64,000 bases of DNA from Patescibacteria group bacterium (GTDB taxonomy: Bacteria; Patescibacteriota; Minisyncoccia; Phycocordibacterales; PALSA-1337). The notes below the pieces were generated by a model. The model searched no databases. It was not told where the DNA came from and worked only from the letters and a program-made list of their open reading frames with translations. The DNA is taken from assembly GCA_038061795.1 (NCBI GenBank), contig JBBTYL010000002.1, forward strand, positions 13,193 to 77,192, read 5' to 3'. Positions 9,711 to 48,081 of the stretch are shown here, one piece after another. Positions within the stretch are counted from its first letter, which is position 1. Every line of letters starts with the position of its first letter. A program made the position numbers and the translations under genes.

Positions 9711-10047
9711 GGTGCGGTTGGACAGTTACAATCCGCTTACGACGCAGTGTGTCCTCAGCAGTGCGTTGTACGGTAGAAAATGAGGAATTTTGACAACAAT
9801 CGGCGCGCGGCGGACATTTCAACGCGCCGACCGAAAATGGCTACTAAGGATGAGGGTGGACTTTGCCGGACTTCGGTCCAACCACGCTCATAGCCCGTTT
9901 CCCTTCTATGCAACGGCGCAGGGAGGATTGAAACGCATCACGTCTGCAGCGATGATGAGGCGACCACCAATATATTTGCTCGAGGTGGATTGTTCGACCG
10001 GTTTGTGGGCGTGTCGTTGACTTCAAGTCGACGCACGCCCCTTTTTT
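9711..10047 (+). ncRNA. Unclassified structured ncRNA candidate (~335 nt), GC-rich, promoter to intrinsic terminator
   Basis: GC-rich island in an AT-rich genome. Local hairpins include GGAC-UUCG-GUCC (UUCG tetraloop) and GGCGCG...CGCGCC. Ends in the strong terminator GGGCGTG...CACGCCC plus TTTTTT at 10007-10047. No plus-strand CDS lies downstream. Confidence 0.4.
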
Positions 10048-24774: not shown

Positions 24775-24909
24775 ATTATTTTATCAACTTACCATAGATT
24801 TTTCATAACTTCTATTCTGTGTTGAGGTGATTGATTTCATCTTTTTTGCAAAAAATTCATCGTTCCTTCATTTCGCTTTGTTAGGATAGTTAATGGATGA
24901 TTATTTTTT

Positions 24910-24988
24910 CCTGTGGGCCTGCTAAGTGGTTTAGAACCTCCTTTCGTCAGGGAAGGTTTGCGGGTTCGACTCCCGTCAGGTCCACAGG
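24910..24988 (+). ncRNA. tRNA-like element with 12-bp terminal helix, Ala-type acceptor features (G3:U70, A73), canonical T-arm, non-canonical anticodon arm
   Basis: CCTGTGGGCCTG pairs with CAGGTCCACAGG (11 of 12 bp). D-like hairpin CTAA-GTGGT-TTAG. T-arm GCGGG-TTCGACT-CCCGT. Central hairpin is ACCTCCT/TTCGTCA/GGGAAGGT with a bulge. No Ala anticodon (xGC) is placeable and no CCA is encoded. Confidence 0.4.
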
Positions 24989-25013
24989 GGTAAATAATTA
25001 TCTCGGATAAAAC

Positions 25014-25042
25014 TTGACTCAGAAAAATGAATTTGGTAGACT
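25014..25042 (+). promoter_or_regulatory. sigma70-like promoter (TTGACT-17nt-TAGACT)
   Basis: TTGACT at 25014-25019 and TAGACT at 25037-25042, about 25 nt downstream of the tRNA-like element. Confidence 0.35.
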
Positions 25043-25048
25043 TACCTT

Positions 25049-25121
25049 ACTGACGAAGGGAGGTAACCACGATGGTAAACTTTGCAAGAACCCGCATGAG
25101 AGTGCGGTTTTTTGTTTTTAA
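25049..25121 (+). ncRNA. Short (~72 nt) terminated transcript with a 5' end antisense to the upstream tRNA-like anticodon arm
   Basis: 25051-25064 TGACGAAGGGAGGT is the reverse complement of 24936-24949 ACCTCCTTTCGTCA (14 nt including one G-U). Ends in the terminator CCGCATGAGAGTGCGG plus T-run at 25092-25120. Also contains RBS GGGAGG-8nt-ATG and a 17-codon ORF that runs through the terminator. Confidence 0.35.
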
Positions 25122-25327
25122 ATAATTTTATTCGATTTTTAACTTTTTTTTGAGTTTATGAGTATTTCCATATTTTAAAAGTCCTTTATATGAACTTACT
25201 TGGCAATTATCGATAGCTATTTTAAAGCTTTTAACTATCCACCTTTTGGTAGACGTTCGCAGGACTCGATGATTTGGAAAGTGCAAATATATTTTACATT
25301 ATTTTTTTATAGAAAACACCCGCAACA

Positions 25328-25369: not shown

Positions 25370-26107
25370 TCAGTTGCGAAGGAAGAGCTGGCGGTCAGCA
25401 AACCACTCACGGTCGTATGCGAACCTGCTGACGTAGACGCGCCACCGACTGTCACCCCAGTGGACGCCGAGGACAAACACATTTCCCTTGTCGTCATGGG
25501 TGAAGAACAGATTGGCATAGCCATTGTCCAGTAAACCAACAGACTTGTCGCCCTTGTGGAACCGCAGGACAAGCTCCTCAACTTGCTTAGGGTTGTACGT
25601 CCTGCCAGTTTCGATGAGCTTCTTGCCAAGCACAGATAGGTCGTCTGAGGTTTCGTTCAGCACGCCCTGTGCCATGTGTCTAAACATCATATTTGCTCTC
25701 ACGAGCTTCATGACTTTCGTTTCACCGCCTTCAGTTGCCGGAAGACTTTTGGTCAGCCAGCGATCCAGATCGCCATCGCGATTGAAGACGTTCGCATCAG
25801 TGAAGCAGTCAGCGGTGTTGCATGCGACTACGGCAGGAGTTGCGATATTGATCGCTACGCAAGCCATAATGACAGCGACGATGCTGTGAACTTCCAACGC
25901 CAGGGCTTTCGCGTTCTTCGTCGGCTTTTCCCAGCAGGTTTCCCTGCGATTGAATCTGTTGAGTTCGCGGAGAACTTCTTCGCCGTTTTCACCGCAGATG
26001 ATATTTGTTTCCAGTTGAGTGATCGGTCCGCGAATTTTGCGGAGCGCTTGTTTGAGCATGGCATTCATGGTCAATTTTCTTTCATTCGGTAAGTAGAGAA
26101 ACATCAA
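25370..26107 (-). CDS. Hypothetical protein, GC-rich (compositionally foreign), one predicted TM helix
   Basis: ~52% GC against ~40% in flanking housekeeping genes. No recognisable motifs apart from a hydrophobic helix IVAVIMACVAINIATPAVVA. Confidence 0.35.
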   Translation of the reverse strand: MMFLYLPNERKLTMNAMLKQALRKIRGPITQLETNIICGENGEEVLRELNRFNRRETCWEKPTKNAKALALEVHSIVAVIMACVAINIATPAVVACNTADCFTDANVFNRDGDLDRWLTKSLPATEGGETKVMKLVRANMMFRHMAQGVLNETSDDLSVLGKKLIETGRTYNPKQVEELVLRFHKGDKSVGLLDNGYANLFFTHDDKGNVFVLGVHWGDSRWRVYVSRFAYDREWFADRQLFLRN

Positions 26108-38522: not shown

Positions 38523-38595
38523 GGGTGGCTAGAGAGAATCGGACTCTCGATACCGGTTCCACAAACCGGAGTTTTACCACTAAACTATAGCCACC
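38523..38595 (-). tRNA. tRNA-His (anticodon GTG) with G-1
   Basis: Reverse complement reads GGTGGCTATAGTTTAGTGGTAAAACTCCGGTTTGTGGAACCGGTATCGAGAGTCCGATTCTCTCTAGCCACC. Anticodon arm CCGGT-TTGTGGA-ACCGG, an extra 5' G pairing with C73, 5' sequence nearly identical to E. coli tRNA-His. Confidence 0.85.
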
Positions 38596-39940: not shown

Positions 39941-40990
39941 CTAAATAACAAAAGCGACACTATACCTTGCCCTAGTCACCGCTACATACAATTTAGAGCG
40001 ATCTCCAACGTGATCAAGATTCCTAGATTTTAGATACGCTTTCATTGGGCCAGTAGGGAAAATCAAAACTCTGTCGTAATTTCTTCCCTTGGATGCTCCA
40101 ATATTAAATGCTGGCAAATTCATCGTATCACTCTGCTTATTCCATCTCAGCACTACTGGCTTGTAACTCTCAAAATATGTCGGCACTTCAGGTTTTTTGA
40201 TCATAAAAATGCCGTCATGCCCTGTCGTGGTCCCATTCATCGACTTCGTCTTATTAAAATCTGGGAACAACACATCCGCAAAATCACAAATTACCTGATT
40301 ACACCTGAATGAATCATTTTTTTCTTCCATAGTGATCAGGCCTGAGCCGCTATGCTGAAGAACCCAATCAAATATACCGCTTCTCTTAAATTTCTTATTT
40401 TTTCCAGAATTATTCGTACTAAAAGTCCCTTGCCGGGGATCACCCACCGCTGTGATTGGAAGTGCGGACTGAAAAAGCTTCTCAAGGAAAGTGAGGTCAT
40501 ATCCCGCCAAGTCTTGCACCTCATCAATGAAGATATGATCGTAAGCTTTTTCAAGTCTCCTAACAATCAACCCGCCGGAGCGCTCATCGCATGTACAGAC
40601 AAAATCAGAAACTCGATCCCGGTAAATATCTCCACTATTTGCTAGGTAATAGCGGTCAAGATTGTTCTTGGGAGCATATTTGGTCCCACTAGGCATATCC
40701 TTAAAAAGGATGGATGCGATCCGAGATTTTTCCGTCACGAAGCTTTGGTAAGGCCGGATGCCTTCCTGTAATAAAAAGCTGAACCATGATAACAGCACGA
40801 TGTGTTTTGGGACATGCCCGCACTTTTCAATTAGATAAGACCTGATCTGGTCCAAGTTCTCATGGGTGTATGTTGTTATCAGAATCCGCTTCCCGACCAA
40901 CGCAATAGCCTCCTCGACAATCATGGTTGTCTTCCTTGATCCAGCGCTCGCCACGACCACCTTGTTTTTAGCTGACGGCATCTTTGACAT
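39941..40990 (-). CDS. UvrD/Rep-like superfamily 1 helicase (short), GajB-like partner of the OLD-family ATPase
   Basis: Motif I ASAGSRKTT, motif II IFIDEVQD, motif VI YVAVTRAR. 23-nt overlap with the upstream OLD-family gene. Confidence 0.6.
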   Translation of the reverse strand: MSKMPSAKNKVVVASAGSRKTTMIVEEAIALVGKRILITTYTHENLDQIRSYLIEKCGHVPKHIVLLSWFSFLLQEGIRPYQSFVTEKSRIASILFKDMPSGTKYAPKNNLDRYYLANSGDIYRDRVSDFVCTCDERSGGLIVRRLEKAYDHIFIDEVQDLAGYDLTFLEKLFQSALPITAVGDPRQGTFSTNNSGKNKKFKRSGIFDWVLQHSGSGLITMEEKNDSFRCNQVICDFADVLFPDFNKTKSMNGTTTGHDGIFMIKKPEVPTYFESYKPVVLRWNKQSDTMNLPAFNIGASKGRNYDRVLIFPTGPMKAYLKSRNLDHVGDRSKLYVAVTRARYSVAFVI

Positions 40991-42563
40991 ACGCGGGAAA
41001 TTCTATCTTCTCGTTGGTCTCGAACAACGCGAGCGCGCATTCCGTCTTATTGGCGGTCATATAATCAACAAGTTCTGGTTTATCTTTGAAAGCCTTGCCA
41101 AAAACTTTATTTAACACGTCTAGCCCATTAACCTCTGCGATGTGAGGCTCCAGTGTTGTAAGGGCATTGTTCTTATCGGCGCACACTTTGATTGAGCCGA
41201 AAGCAGAATATGGTGTGTATTTTTTCTCAACCTTATTCTCATAATCGCCATCATTATCAGTTACAACTGCGACGGTGTTTGAAAGCTCTTTTGCAATATC
41301 AAGGAACCGGGCAAAAGAAAGTCCCCGAACGCTTATGACATCAACACCTGCTTCAATCGGCAACTTTCCGTGTTTCACCAGGAAAGCTTTTTGAACAATC
41401 AATTCGTCAGACGGCCCTTCAACTAAAATGGCCTTCTTTGCCAAAATGAGGCGCAGGGTATCATATCCAGAAAGTTTTTTGAAGTAATCCTGCGTATCTG
41501 GAGGCAGTTTGCTCAAATTTGAATGCTTCGCTTCATGAAGGAAAATCACCTTGTCGATACCAAGCTTATTTAAAACGTATGCGCTGTGTGTCACGATCAC
41601 GATCTGTTTCCCAGCACATTTTTCCCGTATCTTTTTAATGAGTGTACTCATCGAGGAAAACGAGAGATGGTTCTCAGGCTCTTCAATAAGAATGACATTC
41701 GACTCCTTTGCTTGCCGCTCAAGTGCGAGCATGATTTTGAGGGCGCTCTGTTCTCCCTTACCAATGAACTGGAATGGCAATTCATCTAAATGAGGAATCA
41801 GGGAGTTTTCCCAATTTGTCTTTTGCGAAGTGTCGATGGAAATTGCGAGCTTCTTGGTCGTTATCGCGCCCTGGTTTTGGGTCAGTTTTGCATTGATACC
41901 AACAATTGCGTCCTCAGCTGAAAACTGCTCTTTCAGTTTTCTGTAAGCAATCGCCAGCGAAACCTTCTCTTTTGCATCAAGGCTGCCGTTGATTATTTCT
42001 TGAAGGAAATAATCAGTCCCACTTTGTAGACGGATTGTGGTCGCATCGATATTGGAAATGGCAACCGGCAGACTACGAGGTGTTATCGCGTTATTTGCAA
42101 ATGAATACCAGTGAACCTTGTAGTACTCGGTTGGAATGGTTTTTATTTGCTCCCTTGCTTCAAGCAGCTTGGAATATTCATCCGCATACTCGTCATCAAA
42201 CGAGATCACCAATTTCAATCCAACGTAGTCCGTCTTCTGTGAATTATTGTTTCCTCGCAAGTATTGCAACTCTGCCAATTCCTCAAGATACAGTTCAATT
42301 ACTATCTCCGGCGGAACTGGATTGCCTCCACCAGCTACCTCTTTCAAATACGCGTCGATAGAGGCCTTGTTGAACAAGTGGGAAGAGAGCTCATATTCAA
42401 TCGCTTTGCCGTTGAGTCTTTTGGTCAGCACTAATGCTATTGCTTCAAGGATGGTTGACTTACCTGCCTCGTTGTTTCCAACGATAATGTTCAAATCCTT
42501 ATTAAGGGATAGGGTAAAAGCTTGGAACAGCTTGAAGTTTTTAATGTAAATTTGATTTATCAT
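40968..42563 (-). CDS. OLD-family ABC-type ATPase with C-terminal TOPRIM nuclease domain (GajA-like)
   Basis: Walker A GNNEAGKST, Walker B IILIEEPENHLS, H-loop VIVTHS. C-terminal TOPRIM ILVEGPSDE ... VTDNDGD. Confidence 0.7.
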   Translation of the reverse strand: MINQIYIKNFKLFQAFTLSLNKDLNIIVGNNEAGKSTILEAIALVLTKRLNGKAIEYELSSHLFNKASIDAYLKEVAGGGNPVPPEIVIELYLEELAELQYLRGNNNSQKTDYVGLKLVISFDDEYADEYSKLLEAREQIKTIPTEYYKVHWYSFANNAITPRSLPVAISNIDATTIRLQSGTDYFLQEIINGSLDAKEKVSLAIAYRKLKEQFSAEDAIVGINAKLTQNQGAITTKKLAISIDTSQKTNWENSLIPHLDELPFQFIGKGEQSALKIMLALERQAKESNVILIEEPENHLSFSSMSTLIKKIREKCAGKQIVIVTHSAYVLNKLGIDKVIFLHEAKHSNLSKLPPDTQDYFKKLSGYDTLRLILAKKAILVEGPSDELIVQKAFLVKHGKLPIEAGVDVISVRGLSFARFLDIAKELSNTVAVVTDNDGDYENKVEKKYTPYSAFGSIKVCADKNNALTTLEPHIAEVNGLDVLNKVFGKAFKDKPELVDYMTANKTECALALFETNEKIEFPAYVKDAVS

Positions 42564-43998: not shown

Positions 43999-44421
43999 GT
44001 GGAGGCATACAATAACGCGCAAAAACCATTTGGATTTCTCTTCACCTTGGATCTTTACGACTGTAAAGCGGGTGTTTGTGACGACATCGCCCTTTGCTAC
44101 GACTTTCTGGAAAAGTTGGTGGATGAGCTTCAGATGCAAAAACAATCGCCGCCGTTTATTTTCCGTAGCGACGGGAACAAGTATCCCGAAAAGGCGGGCC
44201 TTAGTGGATGGGTTCCGCTGATTGAAAGCGGCATTCAGATCCACACACTTTCAGCTAAAAACTTTATTTCGATCGACATCTATTCCTGCGGCCCGTTCCG
44301 TACAGAACGGCTGGCGGAATTTGTGCGCACTTTTTTTGAGCCCGGGGATATTGAGACCAATCTTATTCCGCGCGGAACTAAATATCACCACTCTTTTGCC
44401 GCAGATGAGCCCATAATTTAG
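43999..44421 (+). CDS. speH: S-adenosylmethionine decarboxylase proenzyme (SpeH), likely functional copy, GTG start
   Basis: Full beta-strand 1 (KPFGFLFTLDLYDCK) aligning with T. maritima KSLGRHLVAEFYEC. ES (Ser) pyruvoyl cleavage site in ESGIQIHT. Confidence 0.65.
   Translation: MEAYNNAQKPFGFLFTLDLYDCKAGVCDDIALCYDFLEKLVDELQMQKQSPPFIFRSDGNKYPEKAGLSGWVPLIESGIQIHTLSAKNFISIDIYSCGPFRTERLAEFVRTFFEPGDIETNLIPRGTKYHHSFAADEPII
44028..44380 (+). repeat. 353-bp perfect direct repeat, copy B (matches 42800-43152)
   Basis: Identical to copy A. The two copies are 1228 bp apart and flank an IS remnant. Confidence 0.85.
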
Positions 44422-44565
44422 GAAATGCGGGGGAACAACGAATTCTGTTCCGATTGTCATTTCGCGGGTTAAAATCCCCACCTCTGAGACGTTGGGTTCA
44501 AAACATTTTTGCTTCTTCGATCAAAAAAAGCCCCTCGCGATAAATCGAGAGGGGTTGTGCTGATG

Positions 44566-45159
44566 TCAGCCGAACGACAACTCCTGTTGTCCAAGCGAAA
44601 CTTTGATGCGTTCCACCTCGGTAGGCTTGGGCGGTTCGCCTTGTTCCAAAGCCTCGGGTGATTGGATGCGGAGTGCGAGCGGCAGCCACGGTGCGATGTA
44701 ATGGATATTTGACCATGCGGCCCAATACTCATTGGACAACGCATTGCCGTGCATGACCCGGGTGGGGATGCCCCACAGGGTCGTGTTGATGAACGCCATG
44801 TCACAGGCCGTGCGGCTAATATCAATGGCGGTGACGCGCAGGCGTCTGCGGATTTCAGGCGGACACGCTTCCGCCACTGACAGAATCATCGCCCCTGCGC
44901 CGCAGGCAGGCTCACAGATGAGTATAGGCCCTTCGGCGGGCCATGATTCCGTGTCTCCCATGAGCATTTGTGCCATCATATCGCAGATGTTCTTCGGCGT
45001 GTGGAACTCGCCGTTCCATTGTTGTCCCTTCTGAGACAGAGCGGATTCCATATAGTATCCGCCAATCAAGTCCTCAAAGGGATGTATTTCCATTTCGGCA
45101 TCCCTGCCACGGTTGGCGCCAGGAAGCGCAGTTCCGGCCCCCCTGCTGATAAAGGCCAC
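44566..45159 (-). pseudogene. N6-adenine DNA methyltransferase fragment (HsdM-like), GC-rich
   Basis: Motif X-like GEFHTPKNICDMMAQML, motif I ICEPACGAGAM, LWGI...HGNAL, but no NPPF/Y motif IV and only 197 aa. Confidence 0.5.
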
Positions 45160-45223
45160 CTCCCATTGCTCGCGCAGAAGGCACAGGGACTGTTGCAGGT
45201 CTTGGAGTACGGGTGACGCCCCA

Positions 45224-46036
45224 TCAACAAACCGGAATTGTGTATGGTCCTGAATGGAAGATGGCGTGCGAGCAATCCATTCTAAGAAATTCGAGTCGTC
45301 TTGGCGGGGGGCGCTCCTTGATGATCAAGGTCGCCAAGGCGACCCGAATTCCTTTACCCACAGCAAAAAACTGCCCAGCCCTCCCTGGCTGGGATGATGG
45401 ATGGTTGGCGTATCGAACCAAATCGGCAGTGCAGTGCAATTGCAGTTTGCCCAAGATATTCTTGCGGTGTGTTTCCACCGTGCCGAGGCTGATTCCCAAA
45501 GTTTCGGCGGTTTCCTTGTTCGTTTTTCCTTCGGCGAGCAATTGTACTATCTGACGTTCGCGTGGCGTTAATCTAAAACGCTGCATGCCGCCGATTGGGA
45601 GCGCTGTTGTCGCGCGGAGGTTTTGCCCGTTTACGTTGTTTGAGATTTTGGGCGTGAGGAAGTTTTTGCCGGAAGCCAAAGCTTCAATTGCTATGGGGAG
45701 CAGTTCCGCGGCGTCACTCTTGAGCAAATAACCGCACGCGCCAGCTTTCAGGACTTCATCAGCAAGGGATTCCGAGTCGTGCATGGTGAGAATCAACACT
45801 TTGGTCCGGGGCGATTCCGCTTTCAGGATGCGGGTGGCGTCCAGGCCATTCAATTCAGGCATGGAGATGTCCAAGATGGCGATGTCGGGTTTGAGTGTGT
45901 GCACGAGTTCGAGCGCGGTGCGGCCATTGGCAGCCTCGCCACACAGTTCCCATGTCGTCTGGCTGTCAATTACGCTTTTAACGCCTTGCCGAATCATGCT
46001 GTGGTCATCGGCAATGATGATGCGAAGATTTTTCAC
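45224..46036 (-). CDS. NarL/FixJ-family response regulator (REC plus LuxR HTH), GC-rich
   Basis: IIADDHSMIRQG...LDISMPELNG receiver. LTPRERQIVQLLAEGKTNKETAETLGISLGTVETHRKNILGKL LuxR HTH. Confidence 0.8.
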   Translation of the reverse strand: MKNLRIIIADDHSMIRQGVKSVIDSQTTWELCGEAANGRTALELVHTLKPDIAILDISMPELNGLDATRILKAESPRTKVLILTMHDSESLADEVLKAGACGYLLKSDAAELLPIAIEALASGKNFLTPKISNNVNGQNLRATTALPIGGMQRFRLTPRERQIVQLLAEGKTNKETAETLGISLGTVETHRKNILGKLQLHCTADLVRYANHPSSQPGRAGQFFAVGKGIRVALATLIIKERPPPRRLEFLRMDCSHAIFHSGPYTIPVC

Positions 46037-46045
46037 GTGAGATTA

Positions 46046-46300
46046 TTCATTTGGTTGGGAGCAGTCTGGGGGGAATCCTCTGGCGAAAGGGGTACTGAGG
46101 CGAGCACTGTGACGCCTTCTGAATCTGATTCCACGTTGAGGTCGCCCCCCACCAAGGCCAGCCGCTCCTGCATGGCTGCCAGGCCAACGCCGGATTTTCG
46201 CAGGAACTTGGTGTCGGACGTAGCGGGTTGCGTCGGGAGGCCGTGTCCGAAGTCTTGAACTTCAACGCGGACCTCCTGGTGGTCACGGGCGAGCCGGATG
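46046..46300 (-). pseudogene. Histidine kinase C-terminal (HATPase_c) fragment, NarX-type, translationally abutting the NarL-like gene
   Basis: Minus-strand translation IRLARDHQEVRVEVQDFGHGLP...GVGLAAMQERLALVGGDLNVESDSEGVTVLASVPL. No intact upstream ORF. Confidence 0.5.
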
Positions 46301-46570
46301 TCCGATGAGGAATACAGCCTCCAGCGGACGGCCTTATTGGAGGAGAAACGCGGATTGGAAAAGTCGCTTCAGGGCGTCGGCCAACAAGTCGAAACTTGTT
46401 TGCAGCAGTCCGAACAAGCGCTTGAATTCGCCTGTGCGGTCCGGCAGCAGTTCACCAAGGGCGATTTTGCGACGAAGAAAGAGATCGTTGCGACCATTGG
46501 ATCGAACCTAACCCTGAAAGACAAAATCCTCATAGTTGAAGCCCGGAAACCGTTTTATCTGCTCGAAACT
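46298..46570 (+). pseudogene. Possible C-terminal fragment of a serine recombinase (coiled-coil tail)
   Basis: DEEYSLQRTALLEEKRGLEKSL...KKEIVATIGSNLTLKDKILIVEARKPF resembles large serine recombinase C-termini. Lacks a catalytic domain. The ORF tail runs antisense through tRNA-Leu. Confidence 0.3.
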
Positions 46571-46672
46571 TCCCTCTGCCATGCCGAAGGTCAGAACGAG
46601 CCAATCGAACCTGAAAATACCGTTGCGACACAGGGACAAAAAGAGGCTTGCGCCTCTTCTTGTCCAAGTCTG

Positions 46673-46756
46673 TGCCCAGGAGAGGACTCGAACCTCCACG
46701 CCCGTAAGGGCTTATCCACCTCAAGGATAAATGTCTACCAGTTTCAACACCTGGGC
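46673..46756 (-). tRNA. tRNA-Leu (anticodon GAG), class II
   Basis: Reverse complement GCCCAGGTG...TGGTAGACA...TATCC-TTGAGGT-GGATA... with a long variable arm, T-arm GGAGG-TTCGAGT-CCTCT, discriminator A. Confidence 0.85.
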
Positions 46757-46826
46757 ATGTATGTCTTCAAACAAAAAGACCCTCTCACTATAGCTGATAA
46801 CGGGTCTTTTTTCAATTTATTTCGTT

Positions 46827-47258
46827 TTATGCAGCAGCCTCTTCCTTCTTCTCTTCTGCCTTAACGCCGTGCTTCGTATCCGTATTCTGGTCCTTCTCGA
46901 TTGCGAGCATTCGTCGCATCTGTCGTCGGATTTCCTTCGTGGCCTTTTCTCGGACGAAGTAAAGCTTTGCTCGGCGAACCTTTGAGCGTCGTAGGAGGTC
47001 TATCTTGTCGATCATCGGAGTATACAATGGGAAAATCTTCTCGACTCCCACGCCGTCCATGACCTTTCGTACTGTGAATGTTCCTCCAGCTTCTGTTCCA
47101 TGCTTTCGGGCAAGAACAAGACCCTCAAACGCCTGAAGCCGTGTCTTTCCCTTTTCCTGGATCTTTTGCCAGACCTTTACTGTATCGCCAGGGCGAATAT
47201 CAAGAGTTTTTCGCTCTTCAACCTTGACTGATGAAATTACTTGAGTTTTTGTTGCCAT
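46827..47258 (-). CDS. rplS: 50S ribosomal protein L19
   Basis: IRPGDTVKVWQKIQEKGKTRLQAFEGLVLARKHGTEAGGTFTVRKV signature. Start set at MATKTQV. Confidence 0.85.
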   Translation of the reverse strand: MATKTQVISSVKVEERKTLDIRPGDTVKVWQKIQEKGKTRLQAFEGLVLARKHGTEAGGTFTVRKVMDGVGVEKIFPLYTPMIDKIDLLRRSKVRRAKLYFVREKATKEIRRQMRRMLAIEKDQNTDTKHGVKAEEKKEEAAA

Positions 47259-47292
47259 ATAGGTAGAGACAAATCTAACACAGACCCTTATT

Positions 47293-48081
47293 TTACGCAA
47301 CCCTTGGTACTCCAAGGAGCAGTCGTCGTATGGCGGCAACTTCGGTGATACCAAGCTCCTCAAAAGCATTCAAGAAGTCCGCTGGAAGGGGTGCCTTAAT
47401 AATAACTTTCTTTCTCATATAAGTAGTGAATTCGATGGAATACGCATGGAGGGCGTTCCTCTCGAACCCTATCTTGTTAGGTATGCCAGAGGCGTAGAGA
47501 CCGTCACAGACGACTGGATGATTCAAGGCTTTGAAGTGCACGCGGATTTGGTGGGTTCGGCCAGTCTTTGGTTCGACTTCAAGAAACGAATACCCTGCCC
47601 TATAAGCGAGCAGCGTATACCATGTCTCAGCTTCGCGAAGCTCTCCCCTAGCGCCTCGGGTGGCTGACCATCTTCGAAAATCTTTCGGGCTCCTACCAAT
47701 AGGGCGATTGATGATACCAAACTGATCCTTGATTTCACCATAGACAAATGTTAGGTATTTTTTTGTAAGTGTCCTCTCTTGGAACTGATCCTTAAGGCAG
47801 GCATGTCCATTTGCGGTTTTTGCAATCAAAATAACTCCGGAAGTATCCCGGTCGAGGCGATGAACAATTCCTGGGCGTTCGATGACTCCATACTCCTTGC
47901 TTTCAATCGGCTCTCCGACATTCTTCGCTCTCGGATAATTCTCAATGACCCAATCGGTAAGAAATGGCCCTTTTGATTTGCCGTCTGGATGCACGACAAG
48001 GCCAGCCGGCTTGTTTACCGCGACGATGTCCTTATCTTCGTATAATATAGGAATCTCCATTATCTTTTTCAGATATTTCAA
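47293..48081 (-). CDS. RluA/RluD-family pseudouridine synthase
   Basis: HRLDRDTSGVILIAKT catalytic motif. Confidence 0.8.
   Translation of the reverse strand: MKYLKKIMEIPILYEDKDIVAVNKPAGLVVHPDGKSKGPFLTDWVIENYPRAKNVGEPIESKEYGVIERPGIVHRLDRDTSGVILIAKTANGHACLKDQFQERTLTKKYLTFVYGEIKDQFGIINRPIGRSPKDFRRWSATRGARGELREAETWYTLLAYRAGYSFLEVEPKTGRTHQIRVHFKALNHPVVCDGLYASGIPNKIGFERNALHAYSIEFTTYMRKKVIIKAPLPADFLNAFEELGITEVAAIRRLLLGVPRVA

Follow-up and report, generated by a model that had tools for sequence, protein, structure and literature searches.

What is encoded by a segment of DNA that has the outline of a tRNA gene and is followed by a promoter whose predicted transcript starts with sequence antisense to that same tRNA-like element? 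This question is raised by positions 24910-25125 of a 64,000-nucleotide stretch from a Patescibacteria group bacterium (GenBank assembly GCA_038061795.1, contig JBBTYL010000002.1, positions 13,193 to 77,192 of the forward strand), the whole of which we call the window. An earlier note, made from the sequence alone, had offered three answers: a tRNA-like RNA (tRL) regulated or sequestered by an adjacent antisense RNA, an attenuator-like device, or a decayed tRNA gene next to an inverted partial copy. Our analysis supports the first of these, as the pairing is kept in four modules through compensatory changes and the promoter of the short RNA is also kept. The two RNAs very probably form a functional base-pairing pair. 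On balance, we favor the view that the segment is an accessory cassette, complete in itself, in which tandem same-strand promoters give rise to two small RNAs, the short RNA neutralizing the tRL; this more guarded judgment applies to the statement as a whole, including the direction of control.

The copy at this site, which we designate module A, has the following plus-strand parts.

24867-24887, plus strand: candidate promoter P1, motif TTCATTTCGCTTTG-T-TAGGAT, an extended -10 element (TGn + TAGGAT) before the tRL
24915-24984, plus strand: tRNA-like RNA A (tRL-A), defined by sequence, fold, a structural scan and the cloverleaf covariation of four modules
25014-25042, plus strand: candidate promoter P2, TTGACT-17-TAGACT with TG upstream of the -10 hexamer, from the promoter scan
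25049-25119, plus strand: predicted short RNA A of about 70 nt, comprising a seed, a small hairpin, and then a terminator (25092-25107) and T-run, from the scan

As the earlier note had described, the cloverleaf of module A is closed by a 12-bp helix (24910-24921 with 24977-24988) that contains one G-U pair. This helix is retained in the minimum free energy (MFE) fold (z = -4.5). The acceptor stem of tRL-A accounts for 7 bp (24915-24921/24977-24983, with G3:U70), and pairing of the leader and trailer (24910-24914 with 24984-24988) lengthens the helix to 12 bp. The D-like hairpin (CTAA/GTGGT/TTAG, 24922-24934) and the canonical T arm (GCGGG-TTCGACT-CCCGT, 24960-24976) were both confirmed in the sequence; the former abuts the acceptor stem, with no 8-9 linker. 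The discriminator is A, and CCA is not encoded. The central arm had been described as unable to present a standard anticodon loop, but it can present a 7-nt loop, UUCGUCA (24943-24949), on a 7-bp stem with a bulged A. The seed of short RNA A (25050-25064) complements this loop and the 5' strand of the central stem (24936-24950) over 15 bp with one G-U, and beyond a 4-nt bulge a further 6 nt (25065-25070) complement the D-loop (24926-24931). The antisense segment of about 14 nt claimed previously is thus real and in fact longer, although only 13 of the 14 quoted positions are exact, the remaining one being a G-U. The promoter and terminator that had been placed downstream of tRL-A were both picked up by our scan, and the 17-codon open reading frame (ORF) with GGGAGG-8-ATG (ATG 25072, TAA 25123) is also present in short RNA A, as a copy-specific feature. 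The tRL-A arm at 24936-24945 reads ACCUCCUUUC, which is identical to the usual 3' tail of 16S rRNA, and its partner at 25056-25064 reads AAGGGAGGU, a strong Shine-Dalgarno (SD) sequence; the RNA pair of copy A mimics an SD/anti-SD interaction, and those of the other three modules do not.

The recurrence of this arrangement at a second site in the window had been reported, and positions 2821-3026 indeed carry the same order of parts with different sequences. The plus-strand parts of this copy, module B, are listed below.

2791-2811, plus strand: candidate promoter P1, CTCATTTCACTTTG-A-TAAAGT
2821-2888, plus strand: tRNA-like RNA B (tRL-B), acceptor GCCGGCG/CGTCGGC (G5:U68), discriminator U
2909-2936, plus strand: candidate promoter P2, TTGACA-16-TATCAT with TG
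2944-3026, plus strand: predicted short RNA B, comprising a seed, a terminator hairpin at about 2990-3017 and a T-run, abutting the metG stop codon

tRL-B has the D hairpin GCA-TGG-TGC, a bulged central stem, the loop CUUAGUA and the T arm GAGGG-TTCGATT-CCCTC, and the seed of short RNA B (2945-2955, TACTAAGTCCC; with a bulge, to 2963) complements the loop and the 5' stem strand at 2838-2852. Modules A and B have little in common besides the T loop and the motif TCATTTCRCTTTGWTA upstream of the tRL, which is found in the 64-kb window only at 24868 and 2792. By comparison with consensus elements, this motif may be read as an extended -10 promoter (TGn-TAnnnT), our P1; it also precedes the tRL in L087 and, in diverged form, in L236.

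These two labels denote related groundwater contigs, the sources of the remaining copies; the window itself is from a Paceibacteria-like Patescibacteria genome of Hainich groundwater. Our search for tRLs in related DNA by structural pattern scanning was complemented by a metagenome scan with the P1 motif and T loop, the sole new member of which was module C (L087, from the same Hainich aquifer), located after recR; the other 23 matches were ordinary tRNAs or coding sequence. Module B2 (L236-L238) was found on contigs of TatD homologues and lies, like B, at the metG-tatD site. The family therefore comprises four modules at three loci (A and B in the window, B2 in L236 and C in L087), and their specificity sequences differ. 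A scan of a genome collection seeded with the neighboring RluA protein returned empty sites and no additional modules. Among 391 promoter-like sites in the 2.18 Mb examined, 7 had a perfect complement of at least 10 nt within 130 nt upstream, and five of these are the modules described here, the other two being AT-rich chance matches. The two-part architecture is rare and is not due to chance. On an unrelated metagenome contig (L102, 982-1250), we also observed a tandem repeat of about 160 bp, the units of which carry a P1-like CTCATTTCACTTTG and a T-arm-like GCGGTTCGACTCCCGGTCCACAGG with a 3' end similar to the one in tRL-A.

Comparison of the four modules showed that in the cloverleaf (24 pairs) 96.7% of the cells were paired and 18 pairs had changed on both sides, and that in the intermolecular helix (15 pairs) 94.9% of the cells were paired and 13 pairs had changed on both sides, with 0/500 shuffles scoring as high in either case; as the alignment has four rows and is fitted to the structure, these figures describe a pattern and are not probabilities. 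Pairing fell to 39-54% in register-shifted controls of the cloverleaf and to 29-44% in those of the intermolecular helix. Judging from the aligned sequences, both the cloverleaf and the intermolecular pairing are evidently under selection. The orthologous modules B and B2 illustrate how the pairing is kept: both strands of the central stem and the short-RNA seed have been replaced together, whereas the two promoters P1 and P2, the D and T arms, the acceptor-stem ends and most of the loop have been kept. Conservation of the complementarity in homologous loci had been set beforehand as a test of the antisense proposal, and B2 at the site of B keeps the pairing. Outside the seed, the short RNAs of B and B2, terminators included, cannot be aligned. 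On the basis of this comparison, we regard the tRL as the conserved, constrained molecule and the short RNA as essentially a seed plus a terminator.

These data bear on two of the answers given at the outset. The tRLs appear, from their sequences, to be recycled tRNA genes: tRL-A resembles the tRNA-Ala(UGC) of relatives both at the beginning of the anticodon arm and along the acceptor stem (GGGCCYG...CRGGTCCA, with G3:U70), and B, B2 and C represent a second tRL type (GCC...GGC-U, D hairpin GCA-TGG(T)-TGC). This likeness of tRL-A, together with the rejection of the elements by tRNA detectors, is what would be expected of a decaying, functionless tRNA pseudogene accompanied by a fortuitous or duplication-derived inverted fragment. 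Such an origin is contradicted by the 18/24 cloverleaf and 13/15 intermolecular pairs changed on both sides, so that every helix shows compensatory changes, and also by the two conserved promoters and by the presence of the same architecture at three unrelated loci; we consider a pseudogene highly improbable. The attenuator-like device proposed for the 17-codon ORF was not supported either, since a well-spaced SD-ATG exists only in copy A (the spacing in copy C is a short 4 nt) and even the orthologous B and B2 have short RNAs with unrelated bodies and terminators. The short RNAs do not agree in whether they have an ORF, or in its frame and length (A has 17 aa, B has 6 aa and B2 has an unrelated 21 aa), and there are none in the tRLs. 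Small ORFs were accordingly rejected as a conserved feature; the 'RV.FF.F' ending that they share comes from translating the terminator in one frame. We likewise rejected a leader or riboswitch on the minus strand for rluA or tatD, as the G-U pairs favor the plus strand and module C has no downstream minus-strand gene.

The position of P2 relative to the complementary segment is the same throughout the family. In all four modules P2 consists of TTGAC(A/T), a 16-17-nt spacer ending in TG(C/G) and the -10 hexamer TAnnnT, is located 10-29 nt after the tRL, and precedes a complementary segment that begins 8-9 nt past the -10 hexamer, that is, at +1 to +3 of the predicted transcript. We detected no terminator between the tRL and the downstream segment. 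A single cis-acting P1 transcript of about 215 nt, in which the downstream segment folds back on the central arm as a switch or processing signal and cloverleaf and long-range helix are alternatives, would agree with this lack of a terminator and with the MFE structure of the whole 216-221-nt stretch, which has a long-range helix (z -5.1 and -3.8). However, it is difficult to see why P2 should be retained in 4/4 modules, exactly 8-9 nt ahead of the complementary segment, if transcription did not begin there, and no regulated gene lies downstream on the plus strand, where the neighboring genes converge on the module. We therefore think it improbable that the module acts only as one transcript.

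The central loops (UUCGUCA, CUUAGUA, CUUGGUA and CUCAGUA) start with Y-U-N-R and end with Y-A, and their middle positions differ most. YUNR U-turn loops, which have the geometry of an anticodon loop, are the classical fast-recognition element of antisense RNAs, and the motif reportedly accelerates antisense pairing (Franch et al. 1999). Both components of a U-turn antisense pair were found in the modules, namely a YUNR loop and a single-stranded partner seed, as the seeds are unpaired in the predicted folds of the short RNAs themselves. At the position equivalent to 37 the loops have a pyrimidine, which would keep them free of the purine-37 modifications that stop pairing from extending past an anticodon. 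The predicted gain in binding of cognate tRL and short RNA over their separate folds was -14.6, -5.8, -13.4 and -8.0 kcal/mol, whereas non-cognate pairs gained approximately 0 kcal/mol with one exception, and the duplexfold matrix was concordant. No other complementary sites for the seeds of the window were found in its 64 kb. Because the loop and stem sequences differ between modules, each RNA pair is expected to be largely private.

We also compared the elements with known classes of RNA. ARAGORN reported seven tRNAs in the window, neither the element of module A nor that of module B among them, and no tmRNA; Rfam at the gathering threshold reported six tRNAs in the window and no RF00005 match at module A. 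The tRNA and tmRNA detector check suggested for module A therefore gave a rejection as a tRNA, leaving a sub-threshold tmRNA match. With cut-offs of E <= 10 for module A and E <= 1 for B, B2 and C, module A matched only the tRNA-like domain of tmRNA (RF00023; 25 bits, gathering threshold 47) in an alignment that leaves out 304 model positions, a match that we attribute to the likeness of tRL-A to tRNA-Ala(UGC). The best sub-threshold matches of B and B2 were to mascRNA/menRNA (RF01684; 22.2 and 20.9 bits, threshold 42.5). Within the same cut-offs for A and for B, B2 and C, there was no match to the Y-RNA family, and no other Rfam family was found besides the sub-threshold tRNA-clan, tmRNA and mascRNA matches.

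An unusual decoding tRNA, or a miniature or split tmRNA, could be suspected from the canonical T arm, the GG of the D-loop, the U33-like loop position, the G3:U70 and A73 of copy A, and the 25-bit match to the tmRNA domain. The canonical tRNA core is departed from at several points, however: the D hairpin abuts the acceptor with no 8-9 linker, the central stem is bulged and 7-8 bp long, and position 37 is a pyrimidine. The loop triplet in the place of an anticodon is UAG in B and UGG in B2, with the acceptor end unchanged. The alanine-identity features G3:U70 and A73 and the 12-bp helix noted earlier are present in copy A, but they do not characterize the family: B, B2 and C have no G3:U70, and neither the 5-bp extension nor A73 is general. 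For a tmRNA, the T arm and 3' acceptor strand follow too directly, leaving no space for a tag frame or pseudoknots, and ARAGORN finds none. A role in decoding or tagging is scarcely credible. Since CCA is not encoded in five of the window's seven real tRNA genes, machinery for 3' CCA addition and maturation must exist in this organism.

According to the reading that we favor, P1, with its extended -10 element and conserved spacer, would drive the tRNA-derived tRL. The tRL keeps the top half of a tRNA intact, with the acceptor helix, the T arm and a D-loop GG able to form the elbow (tRNA-handling enzymes recognize the acceptor/T minihelix and the elbow), and carries as its bottom half a long bulged stem and a 7-nt YUNR-type loop that vary between modules. 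P2, a near-consensus sigma-70 promoter, would drive a terminated short RNA of 70-85 nt, the sole conserved feature of which is an extreme 5' end complementary to the tRL loop, the 5' stem strand and part of the D arm. This single-stranded 5' end may dock on the U-turn loop, and pairing may then zipper through the stem into the D arm and abolish the L-shaped tRNA fold. The product would be a 13-21-bp duplex of the kind cut by RNase III, and the tRL would be neutralized. P2 would keep the short RNA in excess, and read-through transcripts from P1 would carry the antidote in cis, because no terminator follows the tRL.

The direction of control could also be the reverse, with the tRL as a stable, tRNA-scaffolded antisense regulator or sponge that sequesters the 5' end of the short RNA; the short RNA would then be the effector, acting in copy A as a mini-mRNA with a masked SD and in the other copies as trans-acting small RNAs whose targets would lie elsewhere in the genome. 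The pairing and covariation data fit this arrangement equally well, tRNA folds are generally long-lived, and in copy A the tRL arm ACCUCCUUUC covers exactly the GGGAGG of the 17-codon ORF. On the other hand, the short RNAs share no ORF, SD or structure beyond the seed and terminator, the B and B2 bodies being unrelated; the structurally constrained, conserved partner is the tRL; and the seeds have no other target in the window. We judge reverse control to be rather unlikely.

As to what neutralization of the tRL would achieve, we tentatively raise the possibility of an RNA-only addiction or toxin-antitoxin (TA) module, in which the toxin is a tRNA mimic and its private antisense RNA is the antidote, although we regard this as doubtful. 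The free tRL, matured by RNase P, RNase Z and the CCA-adding enzyme, would then occupy an essential factor that recognizes tRNA top halves, and copy A might be charged by AlaRS via G3:U70; the fast-changing loop and stem would give orthogonal pairs, like plasmid incompatibility groups. By occupying such a factor, the tRL might equally make the cassette behave as a dosage-control pair.

The cassette measures approximately 280-310 bp, and because close relatives have empty sites it is an accessory insertion. The gap between metG and tatD is 307 bp in the window and 279 bp in L236, whereas at the empty site in ten relatives' loci (TatD 84-91% identical to that of the window) the metG stop lies 1 nt from the tatD ATG. 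In one of these strains, L247, the TatD shares 95% identity with the TatD of L236, where the site is filled. Similarly, the methyltransferase gene MT278 abuts rluA in six relatives, and the window has hyp245 and module A between them. The neighbors of the modules are rluA, folD, metG, tatD and recR, with no rsr/rtcB neighborhood there. The gene hyp245 (25370-26107, minus strand) has no Pfam or NCBIfam match and about 10 homologues in 5.8 billion clusters; it sits between a methyltransferase gene and rluA in the window and in L250, and between tpiA and pgk in L248. As homologues occur without any module (at the same site in L250 and elsewhere in L248), hyp245 was rejected as a protein partner of the module. 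A transposable element or miniature inverted-repeat transposable element was also rejected, since terminal repeats and target duplication are lacking and the copies are strongly diverged, although a presence/absence polymorphism does exist.

Modules A and B are oriented against the host operon, and their left arms contain candidate promoters facing the displaced genes.

24775-24866: left arm of module A, from the rluA start codon to P1, belonging to the inserted DNA; boundary uncertain
24806-24778, minus strand: promoter-like site facing rluA in the left arm of A, extended -10-like, from the promoter scan
2720-2790: left arm of module B, from the tatD start codon to P1; conserved in L236 (empty versus filled sites)
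2720-2745, minus strand: promoter-like site facing tatD in the left arm of B, extended -10-like

These minus-strand sites end 3-6 nt before the ATG of rluA or tatD, predicting leaderless or near-leaderless mRNAs, and they would restore expression of a gene severed from its operon by the insertion. Past the terminator T-run, three modules read TTT(T)ATTTC (window 3018-3035; L087 3876-3895; L236, reverse complement, near 9722), and copy A (25113-25137) has TTTTATTC. The post-terminator bases in B and B2 are the last metG codons and are present in empty sites too, which hints at microhomology at the insertion point.

The loss of the operon promoter by rluA and tatD upon insertion, and the 11-15-bp inverted repeats that flank a strong promoter, could alternatively point to an inverton, in which the complementary segments are inverted repeats and a recombinase flips P2 toward rluA or tatD. 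This is very improbable. The repeats are unrelated between modules and imperfect in ways that RNA tolerates (a G-U in A, and bulges), and the right-hand repeat lies exactly at the predicted transcript start. Flipping would destroy the tRL, the helices of which are under selection. Only one orientation was seen in six assemblies (A in the window, L001 and L002; B2 in L236-L238), and no recombinase gene is next to any module.

Several points weigh against the cassette as we interpret it. All four modules come from one aquifer lineage. Approximately 300 kb of DNA from related Patescibacteria yielded no further modules, viral contigs gave nothing but chance matches or ordinary phage tRNAs, and blastn found no sequence like the modules in phage and plasmid collections. 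The junctions between empty and filled sites show neither target-site duplication nor terminal repeats, so that no transposition mechanism can be named. The pair counts derive from a hand alignment of four tRLs and four seeds, and the complementarity could in principle be maintained in part by gene conversion, acting on the inverted repeats in the DNA. The exception among the non-cognate pairs is tRL-B with the short RNA of C, for which a cross-reaction of -7.2 kcal/mol is predicted. The promoters, the transcript ends and the processing are likewise predicted, and we infer both which RNA regulates and that the duplex is degraded. The strong SD-ATG of copy A lies exactly where the tRL would cover it, which fits the opposite direction of control. 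The toxin-like role, in which free tRL occupies a factor that recognizes tRNA top halves, is a guess of doubtful likelihood.

Other features were noted elsewhere in the window. Between recO and ileS, a unit of about 370 nt (9660-10046, plus strand) lies antisense to the operon; it has a strong candidate promoter GCTTGACA-17-TACCAT, ends in a GC-rich terminator (GGGCGTG...CACGCCCC plus T-run) and has no Rfam match. L236 (2680-3075, minus strand) has the same promoter and terminator with a body that is not alignable and in which a 71-aa ORF was called, and the relatives L239-L242 have only a 183-nt gap at this site. Possibly the unit is a further insertion cassette of the variable kind, or else a small gene that is hypervariable. 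A Gabija-like defense pair, consisting of an OLD-family AAA/TOPRIM ATPase and then a UvrD-like helicase (39941-42563, minus strand), lies in a low-GC stretch (0.37-0.40) beside tRNA-His (38523-38594), which suggests a small defense island. Positions 44000-48000 have a GC content of 0.50-0.53 against about 0.45 and carry an N6 DNA methylase fragment, a LuxR-type response regulator and a second RluA-type pseudouridine synthase beside tRNA-Leu and tRNA-Val; this is possibly acquired DNA.

How the modules relate to known two-RNA systems can be assessed part by part. In the type I TA pairs tisB/istR-1, shoB/ohsC and zor/orz, adjacent non-overlapping genes encode a toxic-peptide mRNA and an antisense RNA. 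The modules resemble these in having neighboring small units, one of which gives a short terminated RNA that pairs with the other over about 18-21 nt; the pairing is module-specific, and the distribution is accessory and patchy. They are unlike them in that the partner is tRNA-shaped, neither RNA has a conserved ORF, and the genes are in tandem on the same strand without a terminator between them; adjacent RNA pairing in the range of about 15-25 nt was found, and a conserved small toxic-peptide mRNA was not. CopA/CopT, the ColE1 RNAI/RNAII pair and RNA-OUT of IS10 are plasmid or transposon antisense RNAs with YUNR loops that arise by transcription of the opposite strand, which makes them complementary from the outset. 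A 7-nt loop with a YUNR start, new specificities through loop changes and a duplex that spreads into the stem are common to these systems and the modules. In contrast, the complementarity in the modules comes from a separate inverted segment about 100 nt away and needs co-evolution, and no replicon or transposase is involved.

Among tRNA-shaped RNAs, copy A resembles the tRNA-like domain of tmRNA in its G1-G2-G3:U70, A73 and near-consensus T arm and 3' strand, with the anticodon arm replaced; unlike tmRNA, the modules have no mRNA-like region or pseudoknots, and B, B2 and C have no G3:U70. The compact cloverleaf, the 3-bp D hairpin directly after the acceptor and the canonical T arm recall mascRNA/menRNA, which are vertebrate RNAs cut from the 3' end of a long non-coding RNA, whereas the tRL has its own predicted promoter and an antisense partner. 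YrlA, a bacterial Y RNA, has a tRNA-mimicking module and is bound with Rsr/Ro60. As in YrlA, the T and D arms and an acceptor-like stem of a tRNA are retained in an RNA that does not decode; the tRL differs in having a cognate antisense RNA and no rsr/rtcB neighborhood. The sponge 3'ETS-leuZ, a small RNA that is a by-product of a real tRNA operon, likewise shows one RNA neutralizing another, but involves no tRNA-shaped RNA with a private antisense partner. To our knowledge, there is no earlier case of a tRNA-shaped partner combined with same-strand tandem genes. CreTA (PMC8501985) shares with the modules a small RNA-only effector tied to tRNA biology and the neutralization of one RNA by another; unlike in the modules, CreT uses codons to sequester a genuine rare tRNA, it is a CRISPR-like guide that represses it, and here too a tRNA-shaped RNA with a private antisense partner is lacking. 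As a mechanism, the pairing belongs to a known kind, namely U-turn-loop antisense recognition with adjacent genes as in some type I TA systems. The literature searched contained no account of a tRNA-like RNA that has its own antisense RNA encoded beside it, and the arrangement looks like a two-RNA module not described before.

Should the pairing prove functional, this would be the first case known to us of a bacterial tRNA-derived RNA with a dedicated, co-evolving neighboring antisense partner. It would mean that tRNA genes have been put to new use as a stable scaffold, on which a U-turn loop of the anticodon type is displayed for RNA recognition, an idea arrived at independently in synthetic biology in the form of tRNA scaffolds, and the modules would be a source of naturally orthogonal RNA pairs. 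The insertion polymorphism at a TatD identity of 95% is a tractable example of how tiny non-coding cassettes enter the tight operons of streamlined genomes. For the Patescibacteria, a large phylum with almost no characterized small RNAs, the modules would provide a testable RNA-RNA system.

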